Below, one piece after another: positions 59,431 through 62,661 of a stretch of DNA of 64,000 bases. A program made the translations under genes and the position numbers. Below the pieces are notes generated by a model. It saw nothing but the letters and a program-made list of their open reading frames with translations. It was not told the DNA's origin and ran no database searches. Every line of letters starts with the position of its first letter. The stretch's first letter is position 1. This stretch comes from Shigella phage vB_SboM_Phaginator, in the sequence record OL615012; one strand, written 5' to 3'.

Positions 59431-59709
59431 TTATTCTTTAAATCTAATCAATTTATTCATAGACTTTGAAACTTCTGCACGAACCTCATGTAGGTTTTTA
59501 AGCTGTTCAAGACGCTGCTCATAGTAAGCAATTTCATCTTCTTCGAGACAGTCCTGCGAATCTTCTTTAAGATAACGTGCATAGTCCTGGAAAGCTTTAC
59601 GGACTACTTCCTGGAAGTCATCAAGACTTTGAATTTTCTTAGGAGCAACAGATACACGACGAGGGGCAGTATAATACTCATAACCAAACCCTGCGCTTAA
59701 TTGAGCCAT
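59431..59709 (-). CDS. hypothetical protein (~92 aa)
   Basis: ORF-track ORF trimmed to [13 protein letters not shown]..., abutting the upstream ORF's stop. Confidence 0.5.
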
Positions 59710-60011
59710 TAATATTTTTCCTCTGGTTGGAACACAGCACGACAAGCCCACATACTGGCTTCTTTGAGTTTCGTTTTAGCAATAGTTAACTGATCGAGGC
59801 TTTCAGCATAATTCTTCGCGAATTCACAGTCTTCACAATTATCTAGTGCTTCCCAGAATTCATCATATAAAGCGTCAAAGATAAGTCCTAAACGAACTTC
59901 AGCGTCTTTGATAGCATTCACTTTACCGATTTTCTCTTCAGTATGTGGCTTATAACCCTTAATATCTTCAATCATATTTGACTTCCTCACCAGTACATAA
60001 ATCATATTCAA
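59709..60011 (-). CDS. hypothetical protein (88-100 aa), 2nd ORF after regB
   Basis: ORF-track ORF; start ambiguous (MNMIYV... or MIEDIKG...). Confidence 0.5.
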
Positions 60012-60189
60012 CTAAACGAATAGGTTCATGAATGCCATATCCTTGAACAGAAATTTCTGTCGTAGGATAAATTCCATCAATATCACCCATATTCCATGCT
60101 TCATTAAATTGTTGTTCGCCTGAATTACTAAACCATTCGGCGAAAGCATTTAGCACATCTTTAGAACCTTCAATAATTATCTTTGCCAT
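59968..60189 (-). CDS. hypothetical acidic protein (73 aa)
   Basis: ORF-track ORF; ATGA-coupled to the GrcA-like gene. Confidence 0.5.
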   Translation of the reverse strand: MAKIIIEGSKDVLNAFAEWFSNSGEQQFNEAWNMGDIDGIYPTTEISVQGYGIHEPIRLVEYDLCTGEEVKYD

Positions 60190-60551
60190 TACAAACTCTC
60201 AGTAAAGGTACGAGCGATAACGTCGCGCTGCTGTTCCGGAGTCAGAGAGTTAAAGCGAACTGCATAACCGGATACACGGATGGTCAGCTGCGGATATTTT
60301 TCCGGATGCTTAACTGCATCTTCCAGAGTTTCGCGACGCAGAACGTTAACGTTCAGGTGTTGACCACCTTCAATTTTAACTGTAGGCTGTGGTTCAATTT
60401 CAATTTCACGGGCATGCAAACCGTAGAAAATTTCTGGGTCTACAAAAGAGTCCTCTTTAAAGGTTTTAGAGACAATAATTCGTGCTTGAATACCATCTTC
60501 AAAATAAATAGTACCTTTGTGTGTGCCTTCAAGAATTTGATATGCTTTCAT
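60189..60551 (-). CDS. GrcA/YfiD-like autonomous glycyl radical cofactor
   Basis: 120-aa ORF; C-terminus ...[60 protein letters not shown] carries the RVSGY glycyl-radical motif and matches E. coli GrcA as recalled. Confidence 0.7.
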
Positions 60552-60558
60552 ATAAACC

Positions 60559-60888
60559 TCAATTAGAAAATAAATTTATCCAAGATTGTTCTTTAATTAA
60601 AAATGGCTCAGAATCATATGCCATTAAACTCTGTGTGATTAGTCCTTTAAAAGGCCCATCAATAAATTCCATGGTAAAATATGGAATTTTATTCATTAAC
60701 CGTGCATTAGGAGCCGTACACAAAACTCTGCATCCTTTGAATACGCCTTTTTGTAATTTGTATTGCTTGGGATAAAATTCGCTCAAAATGTTATTATTTG
60801 CTAAAATTTCAAAATGATTCACCAATTTATTTTTAATAGTTTTTGGCGAAAAATAAAGATATTCGAAAAGCTGAGTGTCTGTCATCAT
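60559..60888 (-). CDS. hypothetical protein (~109 aa)
   Basis: ORF-track ORF trimmed to an internal Met to give ATGA coupling. Confidence 0.5.
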
Positions 60889-61427
60889 TGCATTCCGATT
60901 ATGAAAAACTGTGGACGAGTAATACCACCAATGCAGCATTTACTATTGCAACAGTGGTGCACAGTTTCAATATGAATATCGTAAATTTTATCCATATCAG
61001 GAGATTTAACAGGCTCATCGATTATATACAAAATCCGCGAAAGCGATAAACCTCTGAACTTGCTACCTCTATTACCAACAAAACTACGGACAGAAACAGT
61101 AAATAAACGGAATCGAATATCATCATTAGAATAGCGTGAAAATTCTTTTTTAATGTGGCCCGCAGAAATTTTAGCGTAAGCTGAAGTATTAGAAAGAACA
61201 ATAACTGTTCCACCGTCATACAACCAATTAGCGGCAAAATTAGTTACTGCAGTTGATTTACCGGATTGACGTCCACCATCTAGTCGAAGTGTGCAGTATT
61301 CTTTAAATAAATGTGGCGAATCAGGTACATAAAATCCACTATTACAAATTTCTTCTACTCTAGCATCAGAATGGTGTGTAAAAGCATTCATCAGGGATAG
61401 ATAAGGACCAGTTAAAAATGTTCTCAT
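60885..61427 (-). CDS. small P-loop NTPase with C-terminal Cys cluster (~180 aa)
   Basis: Trimmed to MRTFLTGPYL... after AGAGAGAATAAA; Walker A GGRQSGKST, Walker B ILYIIDEP, tail HHCCNSKCC. Confidence 0.55.
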   Translation of the reverse strand: MRTFLTGPYLSLMNAFTHHSDARVEEICNSGFYVPDSPHLFKEYCTLRLDGGRQSGKSTAVTNFAANWLYDGGTVIVLSNTSAYAKISAGHIKKEFSRYSNDDIRFRLFTVSVRSFVGNRGSKFRGLSLSRILYIIDEPVKSPDMDKIYDIHIETVHHCCNSKCCIGGITRPQFFIIGMQ

Positions 61428-61593
61428 TTTATTCTCTCTAAATTTGGGCCATTCCATGGCGCGTGAATTGTCCATTTCTGTATTTACCCATTACCGCACT
61501 TGGGCTCGACCTTATTACAGGTTGGCTGGAATCCCTCACAGAATCATGAGGTCCAGCTTGTTCCCATTTTATTTGAATGTAAATAGATCTGAG

Positions 61594-62200: not shown

Positions 62201-62230
62201 ATTATACCATATTAATACTTAAGCGTAAAC
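62201..62230 (-). promoter_or_regulatory. T4-type early promoter
   Basis: Minus strand GTTTAC-18 nt-TGGTATAAT upstream of the IPIII-like gene. Confidence 0.7.
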
Positions 62231-62500: not shown

Positions 62501-62604
62501 TTAGTAAATTGATTTACCAAAGTATTTGTACCAAGTCGGACGTTGATCAATTTTTTCATCTAAGCGTGCTTGATTTATCGCAATGGACGCTTCGGACGGG
62601 TCAT
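62501..62604 (-). pseudogene. denV: denV (endonuclease V) deletion remnant
   Basis: ATG after GGAGG encodes MTRPKRPLR then stop; a second frame reads [30 protein letters not shown], matching the T4 endonuclease V C-terminus as recalled. Confidence 0.6.
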
Positions 62605-62631
62605 AATTTCCTCCAAGTAGTTGATGAATGT

Positions 62632-62661
62632 ATAGTATCAAAACCCTTGGAGGAAGTAAAC
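62632..62661 (-). promoter_or_regulatory. T4-type early promoter upstream of the denV remnant
   Basis: Minus strand GTTTAC-18 nt-TACTAT, then GGAGG and the remnant ATG. Confidence 0.55.

Follow-up and report, generated by a model that had tools for sequence, protein, structure and literature searches.

The closest described relative of the gene considered here is vs.8 of bacteriophage T4, which has stood in the T4 annotation for decades. Evans et al. (Nat Commun, 3 August 2026, PMC13601566) recovered vs.8 when they screened T4 proteins with AlphaFold 3 against EcAvs2, a terminase sensor, and described it as 'an uncharacterized ATPase-like protein' that is homologous to the terminase ATPase domain and has both a Walker A and a Walker B motif. 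They reported T4 Vs.8 to be toxic upon co-expression with EcAvs2, and their model places it in the terminase pocket of Avs2 with a bridging ATP (interface predicted template-modelling score, ipTM, 0.84). They stated that both its part in infection and the function it has for the phage are unknown, and such activators, in the authors' view, may be anti-defence proteins which Avs2 learned to recognise. The present study concerns the corresponding gene of Shigella phage vB_SboM_Phaginator (sequence record OL615012), within a stretch of 64,000 nucleotides (64 kb) that we refer to as the window, and an RNA-like element just upstream of that gene. The protein as such is already known, its terminase-like ATPase character and its triggering of Avs2 having been published in 2026.

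Two further non-terminase activators of Avs2 from the same work, Ksap1 and Ksap2, resemble Vs.8 in being small, lineage-restricted phage proteins with a terminase-ATPase-like beta-sheet core, reported or predicted to occupy the terminase pocket of Avs2 and to be toxic in its presence. The likeness is one of description, and the host phages differ, being Dhillonvirus and Stephanstirmvirinae for Ksap1 and Ksap2 and T4-like phages for vs.8. Two proteins encoded close to vs.8 in T4 have been characterised as sponges, Vs.4 for cGAMP (Acb2, PMC10449767) and Vs.3 for the type IV Thoeris signal N7-cADPR (TadIV-1, PMC13243611). In the latter study each of Vs.3 to Vs.8 was expressed from a plasmid using 'the promoter of vs.8', and Vs.3 alone inhibited type IV Thoeris. 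Activation of EcAvs2 was reported for T4 Vs.8, to which the window protein is 87% identical.

Identity of the gene and its conserved motifs

The open reading frame (ORF) at 60885..61427 on the minus strand specifies 180 amino acids (aa) plus a stop codon. The longest mechanical ORF is 60885..61475 (196 aa); the ATG at 61427 is the start common to the homologues, and a GAGAG ribosome-binding site precedes it. The product is 87% identical over 180 aa to T4 Vs.8 (NP_049732) and matches PHROG 1488 ('unknown function') at E 1e-76 over residues 3-180; each of the 39 tested members of the family matches this profile as well, and the gene bears the name vs.8 in the RB32, JS98 and PM2 records. These matches identify the ORF as the orthologue of T4 vs.8, and we regard its identity and fold as close to certain. 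The original prediction, made from the letters of the window, had described a small P-loop NTPase that could not be placed in a family, quoting a Walker A string, a Walker B string and a Cys-rich stretch. The ORF and all three strings are present exactly as quoted, and the P-loop assignment was right, with Walker A and B conserved in relatives down to 38% identity. The question of the family is now answered by T4 Vs.8, PHROG 1488 and a remote homology to the ATPase core of the T4 large terminase gp17; this is a named family of uncharacterised function, not a characterised housekeeping family. Scans of Vs.8 with Pfam, NCBIfam and PADLOC gave nothing significant and no family.

Twenty homologues (down to 38% identity) share without exception the residues D50-GGRQSGK-57, R125-G126, E138-P139, F174, G178 and Q180, and D137 is conserved to at least 90%. 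Most of the 39 wider relatives retain the same pattern of Walker A, Arg-Gly (RG) and Walker B, as well as the P-x-hhhh-G-x-Q ending. The AlphaFold2 model, with a predicted local distance difference test score (pLDDT) of 83 and a predicted template-modelling score (pTM) of 0.83, has a long N-terminal helix followed by a five-stranded alpha/beta core. The protein ends where ATPases of the additional-strand, catalytic-glutamate (ASCE) type carry motif III (the C-motif), and its C-terminal strand, which lies outside the profile match described below, would correspond to gp17 T285-T287. From these features Vs.8 is expected to bind Mg-ATP and it probably hydrolyses ATP, and by itself it should be unable to translocate DNA; no biochemical NTPase assay of Vs.8 was found in the literature searched.

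The Cys-rich stretch had been taken as a C-terminal cluster forming the tail of the protein. It is not the tail, as twelve more residues follow and form the last conserved beta-strand, and it is not a family-wide feature. One CC pair alone is kept in relatives of at least about 68% identity (close Tequatrovirus and Mosigvirus), where the segment reads HCCRSYNA or YCCRVDCY, and at 38-57% identity the loop differs in length from one relative to another and contains isolated Cys residues at most. Residues 162-168 have a pLDDT below 50 in the AlphaFold2 model, and a Pfam conotoxin match in the loop, seen in one of the 39 members and below threshold, is noise. Four conserved Cys/His ligands in a folded module, as in zinc-ribbon or iron-sulfur (Fe-S) types, are absent from Vs.8, and we interpret the cluster as a lineage-specific, incidental loop.

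Public labels of vs.8 are inconsistent. 'Endoribonuclease', 'IpIII internal head protein' and 'terminase large subunit' are all in use (MH809535, OK272476, KY979109, OR359401, PQ657790, MT682709); they look like transferred or automatic labels and not like evidence.

Relation to terminases and helicases

Profile comparisons show that Vs.8 is distantly homologous to the ATPase core (subdomain I) of gp17, the large terminase of the T4 type. The profile phrog_2 (terminase large subunit) matches the window protein at E 3.5e-6, and 23 of the 39 family members match it as well. When the Vs.8 family was aligned by hhalign with eight gp17-type ATPase domains, ranging from T4 to Pseudomonas phage Ettore, the result was a probability of 97.2% and E 3.9e-11 over 119 columns, in a register that places Walker A on gp17 S161-T167, R125-G126 on R245-G246 and D137-E138 on D255-E256. 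The link to terminase is detected by profile-level methods only.

In comparison to gp17 subdomain I (Terminase_6N; PDB 2o0h), Vs.8 covers approximately gp17 residues 142-273 plus one more strand, without the lid subdomain II, the nuclease domain and the N-terminal region of gp17, and its gene lies among accessory genes and not beside gene 16. A large terminase consists of two domains, an ATPase with its lid and a C-terminal RNase H-like nuclease, whereas Vs.8 ends after the post-Walker B strand; it falls outside this architectural definition because it represents the core of ATPase subdomain I alone.

Terminase and helicase ancestry are not separable by fold alone, and the published tree (PMC13601566) was built from a PSI-BLAST search that retrieved both terminase ATPases and superfamily 2 (SF2) helicases. 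It is the RecA1 halves of such helicases alone (DDX1, Mfd, RecG, RIG-I) that align with Vs.8, at 12-16% identity. An SF2 helicase combines RecA1 with RecA2 and carries motifs IV-VI, whereas the Vs.8 model has a single domain, without RecA2, and of the helicase motifs it has Walker A, Walker B and motif III only. The sequence profiles, together with the RQxGK[ST] and RG signatures, favour a terminase ancestry.

Small ATPase-like proteins (143-176 aa) of large myoviruses and jumbo phages are similar to Vs.8 in size and predicted fold. Foldseek matches in BFVD (from phiP4-3, JSF10, Aes012, 201phi2-1, PhiPA3, phiRSL1 and Mendera) have E 2e-7 to 1e-3, template-modelling (TM) scores of 0.5-0.64 and identities of 14-25%, which is a structural likeness only.

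Distribution of the family

When 50,697 phage records were searched by megablast and tblastn, tblastn found vs.8 in 1,009, with a coverage of at least 80% in 1,007 of them, which is far more than chance would produce. The carriers are mostly T4-like phages of Escherichia, Shigella, Klebsiella, Yersinia, Salmonella and Enterobacter. An exhaustive hidden Markov model (HMM) search of 1.8 billion representative proteins returned 55 clusters only, the full-length members of which have about 135-260 aa (mostly 150-185), and none of these is a full-length terminase. Vs.8 represents a compact family of stand-alone small proteins.

In phage T2 (H69, MH751506 61763..62295) the gene is split, such that tblastn needs three pieces, and only fragments of 57 and 110 aa are annotated (BFVD A0A386KE76, A0A2Z5WKZ0). 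Because it is broken in T2, vs.8 appears to be dispensable in at least one natural lineage. A divergent branch (P0056, P0059, P0064 and P0068) carries His where Walker A should have Lys (SGHS or SGHT), shows VDCA, IDCS or VDVA at the site of the Walker B hhDE, and has a C-terminus of FLE or FVE, not GxQ; its members probably do not hydrolyse ATP.

Possible roles of Vs.8

The puzzle is that about 1,000 T4-like phages keep a catalytically intact mini-terminase beside two proven anti-defence sponges, and from its solution one would learn if look-alikes of conserved phage proteins are a means by which phages counter pattern-recognition immunity. Of several possible explanations, we favour with moderate confidence, as a whole, one where the vs.8 orthologue encodes a minimal ASCE ATPase of the gp17 subdomain I type with a role at the immune interface. 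Vs.8 consists of one minimal ASCE P-loop ATPase domain that keeps the nucleotide-handling residues (Arg-Gln of Walker A, Arg-Gly, and Asp-Glu of Walker B) and would act at the interface between phage and host immunity as a terminase-ATPase look-alike, made together with the other vs genes. It could bind host proteins by which the ATPase fold of terminase is recognised, or serve them as a decoy, or it could be an anti-defence factor which Avs2 has learned to detect. The immune role taken by itself is a guess, possible but with the chances against it, that we favour because of the anti-defence neighbours (Acb2 and TadIV-1), the dispensability of the gene and the Avs2 result. In a bolder version, which we consider quite unlikely, Vs.8 would be a purposely made terminase-ATPase mimic, produced together with Acb2 and TadIV-1, that occupies, misleads or desensitises sensors of the terminase fold (Avs1-3, Upx or sensors not yet known), Avs2 activation being the counter-move of the host, and the upstream pseudoknotted RNA would belong to an undescribed class that processes, stabilises or regulates the anti-defence transcript.

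Several results weigh against the explanation that we favour. Pairwise BLASTP of Vs.8 against T4 gp17 gave nothing (E 0.19), and neither did a PDB sequence-profile search with Vs.8 give anything significant. The Pfam family Terminase_6N scores 14.5 bits against a cut-off of 22, and it stays below its gathering score for all 39 members (best E 0.0011). The only phenotype reported for Vs.8 is the activation of a defence (EcAvs2), not its inhibition, and Vs.8 did not inhibit type IV Thoeris (PMC13243611). A passive decoy would have no need of an enzymatic cycle, yet the invariant catalytic-type Glu suggests a real one. Finally, a consensus scan in this phage found no promoter-like site in the spacer upstream of vs.8.

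The main alternative gives Vs.8 an accessory part in phage DNA metabolism or packaging, as an ATPase that might, for example, partner or modulate gp17 or gp16 by supplying or capping an ATPase interface; its recognition by Avs2 would then be incidental to common descent. The oligomeric action of terminase ATPases, in which residues are supplied in trans, would suit such a partner, as would the homology to the gp17 ATPase core with strong constraint on all catalytic residues, and the small Vs.8-like proteins in many large myoviruses and jumbo phages would fit a general accessory of replication or packaging. We nevertheless consider this process unlikely, as vs.8 lies in a group of early accessory genes that are not essential, at a distance from genes 16 and 17, and is broken in T2, which packages DNA normally, as the protein is devoid of subdomain II and of all gp17 regions outside residues 142-273, and as no packaging phenotype is on record in the literature searched. 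A derivation from RecA1 of an SF2 helicase (DEAD-box or RecG/Mfd-like), making Vs.8 a single-domain NTPase on RNA or DNA, is consistent with the alignable RecA1 halves; we disfavour it as very unlikely in view of the profiles and signatures given above.

The presence of four Cys and two His within nine residues, both in the window phage and in T4, and the glycyl-radical cofactor encoded by the neighbouring vs.6 could be read as signs of an NTPase that binds metal (zinc or iron-sulfur) or senses redox state through its Cys cluster, as the title of the original prediction implied. Such a function is extremely improbable, as the ligand pattern is not conserved, the segment is variable in length and modelled with low confidence, and the conotoxin match is sub-threshold. 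It is also highly improbable that Vs.8 stems from a partial duplication of gene 17 and is decaying without a function. In favour of this, Vs.8 is truncated relative to gp17, its gene is broken in T2, and a few distant members have lost the Walker A Lys and the Walker B Asp-Glu. Against this, vs.8 is full-length in about 1,000 genomes across genera, with catalytic motifs that are invariant at 38% identity and with conserved length, ends and genomic position, and the conservation of the motifs already indicates purifying selection.

A structured RNA-like element upstream of vs.8

The spacer between ipIII and vs.8 contains an RNA-like element that is as widespread as vs.8 and may be a more original lead than the protein. 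The spacer DNA is conserved across genera in which the Vs.8 proteins are only about 40% identical. The element has approximately 100 nt, at least four helices and a pseudoknot, with the invariant core ACCUGUAAUAAGGUCGAGCCCAAGUGCGGUAA, and its features point to a structured RNA, the transcription of which is putative. The modelled structure comprises an outer 5' helix, an inner hairpin, a helix that encloses GAGCCCAAGUGCGGUAA together with the invariant ACCU-GUAAUA-AGGU hairpin, and a further helix that forms a pseudoknot by crossing the first.

In an alignment of 16 sequences, 88.6% of the cells are paired as compared to 78.5 +/- 1.0 in shuffled alignments (0 of 500 reached the observed value), and 43 cells show double changes as compared to 13.3 (again 0 of 500), with at most 46% paired in slid controls; the significance is that of shuffle-based controls in which kinship among the copies is not corrected for. 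Compensatory changes are seen in each of the four pairs of the first helix (GGAA/UUCC, GGAG/CUCC, AAGG/CCUU, AAGC/GCUU), and the pseudoknot occurs as CCG/CGG, CACAC/GUGUG, CGC/GCG, ACCA/UGGU, ACCG/CGGU, CUCGA/UCGAG, CCUG/CAGG and CUG/CAG. In the window its strands are CUG, near 61550..61548, and CAG, near 61480..61478. Wide windows were uninformative in the complementarity test and narrowed windows were used; with these, cognate pseudoknot strands score 3.85 and non-cognate strands 2.71, and none of 20,000 permutations reached the observed value. The single-sequence fold of the spacer is unremarkable (z -1.4).

A degenerate 23-nt core pattern (ACCTGTNANAAGGTCNAGCNCAA) matches 32 viral contigs. 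Thirty of these are 100-177 kb long, and in them the pattern lies immediately upstream of vs.8 or, if an internal-protein gene is inserted ahead of vs.8, of that gene, while the remaining two (L034 and L041) are short contigs with a gene content that is not T4-like and also carry the element. A blastn search found the element in 1,040 phage records, rV5-like Vequintavirus phages among them. A covariance model based on 16 copies locates a single copy in the window (61466..61567, 86 bits, E 1.7e-19), matches the unrelated contigs L034 and L041 and the Vequintavirus locus L049 over its full length (40-49 bits), and shows that two phages have a second copy in tandem. In L041 an endolysin gene precedes the element and an intrinsic terminator comes after it, and in Vequintavirus it is upstream of a strong sigma-70 promoter. 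These contexts imply that it may be the 3' end of the upstream transcript or a separate small RNA, not a leader of vs.8. A scan of bacterial genomes for the core gave three matches, which is about the chance expectation by our own estimate, and the one that was inspected does not extend beyond the pattern.

The arrangement around the element varies (L028:5076-5305(-), L033:8966-9196, L032:120-389(-)). Two copies stand in tandem upstream of vs.8 in some T4-like phages, an extra hairpin is inserted after the element in L018, L027, L040, L045 and L014, and in Marfa-like phages the gene for an internal head protein lies between the element and vs.8.

Several known identities were considered for the element. 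The window copy and two foreign copies have no relevant match in Rfam 15 at E up to 10. The PeSL cassette consists of a short stem-loop followed by TTTACW-N17-TAYWAT and occurs in many copies in hyperplastic regions (PMC4122927). Copies of the element outside Tequatrovirus do contain TTTACA, and this identity was rejected, as there is a single copy in the window, about 100 nt is too long, the structure has multiple helices and a pseudoknot, and the spacer yielded no promoter-like site. The order of strands resembles the nested double pseudoknot of ribozymes of the hepatitis delta virus (HDV) type, which we do not claim, the inner hairpin having 5-10 bp with a variable loop and no C being conserved in the joining strand across all lineages.

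It was also considered whether the element might be part of the coding region, as an N-terminal extension of Vs.8. The vs.8 coding sequence (CDS) in the T4 RefSeq record has 219 aa and is 39 codons longer, and the extension (L002:4297-4413, NC_000866 64796..64912) overlies the RNA-like element. An extension was rejected, being out of frame in the window and interrupted by indels in other genera, and the T4 RefSeq CDS is probably over-extended by these 39 codons. In the window the counterpart (61428..61475, 61438..61539) is a separate 33-aa ORF with a GTG start, which is not conserved as coding in other genera.

Gene neighbourhood

The window covers the left part of the genome of a T4-like phage (Tequatrovirus). 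The order in the region is nudE, e, internal-protein genes, vs.8, vs.7, vs.6, vs.5, vs.4, vs.3, regB, vs.1 and vs, all on the minus strand, such that vs.8 heads the run from vs.8 to vs.3. Its position, after the internal-protein/denV block and as the first gene of the run that ends before regB, is the same in T4, IME340, PM2, phiR1-RT and Marfa, and is kept across Tequatrovirus, Mosugukvirus, Tegunavirus and Marfavirus, whereas on either side of vs.8, as far as regB and as far as e, phages differ in gene content. The original prediction had put the ORF in a variable regB-to-e region; the location is correct, but vs.8 itself is a stable anchor and it is the surrounding genes that change. The ATG of vs.7 overlaps the vs.8 stop codon (ATGA), an identical 4-nt overlap being annotated in T4, and the run downstream of vs.7 spans 59431..60551. 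For vs.6, two genes downstream, no link to vs.8 was found. The coordinates are collected in the table.

Table. Coordinates of vs.8, its motifs, its neighbours and the upstream RNA-like element (positions in the window, except for the L labels, which are loci elsewhere)
Feature	Position	Strand	Basis or remark
vs.8 CDS, stand-alone terminase-like ASCE P-loop ATPase domain (predicted)	60885..61427	minus	ORF, homologue start, T4 Vs.8, PHROG 1488, AlphaFold2
Walker A / P-loop, G51-G-R-Q-S-G-K-S-T59, terminase-style [SG]RQxGK[ST]	61251..61277	minus	D50-K57 invariant in 20 homologues; aligns with gp17 S161-RQLGKT-167
R125-G126, invariant Arg-Gly before the Walker B strand	61050..61055	minus	aligns with invariant R245-G246 of gp17-type terminases
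Walker B, I132-LYIIDE-P139, with Asp137 and catalytic-type Glu138	61011..61034	minus	aligns with gp17 D255-E256
Cys-rich variable loop, H157-HCCNSKCCIGG-G168 (HHCCNSKCCIGG)	60924..60959	minus	not a conserved motif
Last beta-strand and C-terminus, F174-FIIGMQ-180	60888..60908	minus	F174, G178 and Q180 invariant
vs.7, 109 aa, PHROG 2049 (function unknown)	60559..60888	minus	99% identical to T4 Vs.7
vs.6, GrcA-like autonomous glycyl-radical cofactor	60189..60551	minus	Pfam Gly_radical E 2.8e-18; 99% identical to T4
vs.5	59968..60189	minus	about 86-94% identity to T4 (tblastn)
vs.4/Acb2	59709..59975	minus	100% identity to T4 (tblastn)
vs.3/TadIV-1	59431..59709	minus	98% identity to T4 (tblastn)
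ipIII-vs.8 spacer, 166 nt	61428..61593	minus	contains the RNA-like element core (61466..61567) and a small hairpin
Small hairpin GCCAUGGAAUGGC, ahead of the vs.8 ribosome-binding site	61448..61460	minus	within the spacer
Nearest upstream same-strand sigma-70-like promoter match, TTTACG-N17-TATAAT with TG, ahead of ipIII	62201..62229	minus	consensus scan
RNA-like element copies	L017:8879-8997(-), L013:3336-3454, L012:3338-3456, L011:2922-3040		
RNA-like element copies	L034:3748-3843(-), L041:1873-1960(-), L049:2466-2562		

The consensus scan detected no minus-strand promoter-like or terminator-like site between the promoter match ahead of ipIII and the vs.8 start. Because no such site intervenes, ipIII and vs.8 may possibly be co-transcribed.

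The window phage and T4 have in common the neighbours of vs.8 (vs.7 joined by ATGA, and vs.6 to vs.3), the motifs and the HxCCNSKCCIGG loop. They differ upstream, where T4 has denV (endonuclease V, UV repair) directly adjacent to vs.8 and the window phage has ipIII. There is no full denV in the window; a remnant is found at 62501..62641 on the minus strand, where a 46-aa ORF corresponds to about 42 of the 138 residues of T4 DenV with 74% identity.

Divergence from T4 is uneven across 59431..61427, Vs.8 having 87% identity as compared to 99% for Vs.7, 99% for Vs.6, 100% for Vs.4 and 98% for Vs.3. The largest differences in Vs.8 are at residues 29-44 and at scattered surface positions. This pattern suggests either a recombination mosaic or a faster evolution of vs.8. 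The homologue of vs.5 is a 73-aa ORF to which the 58-aa T4 Vs.5 aligns in two frames (60189..60139 and 60140..60015), suggesting a frameshift or indel difference from T4.

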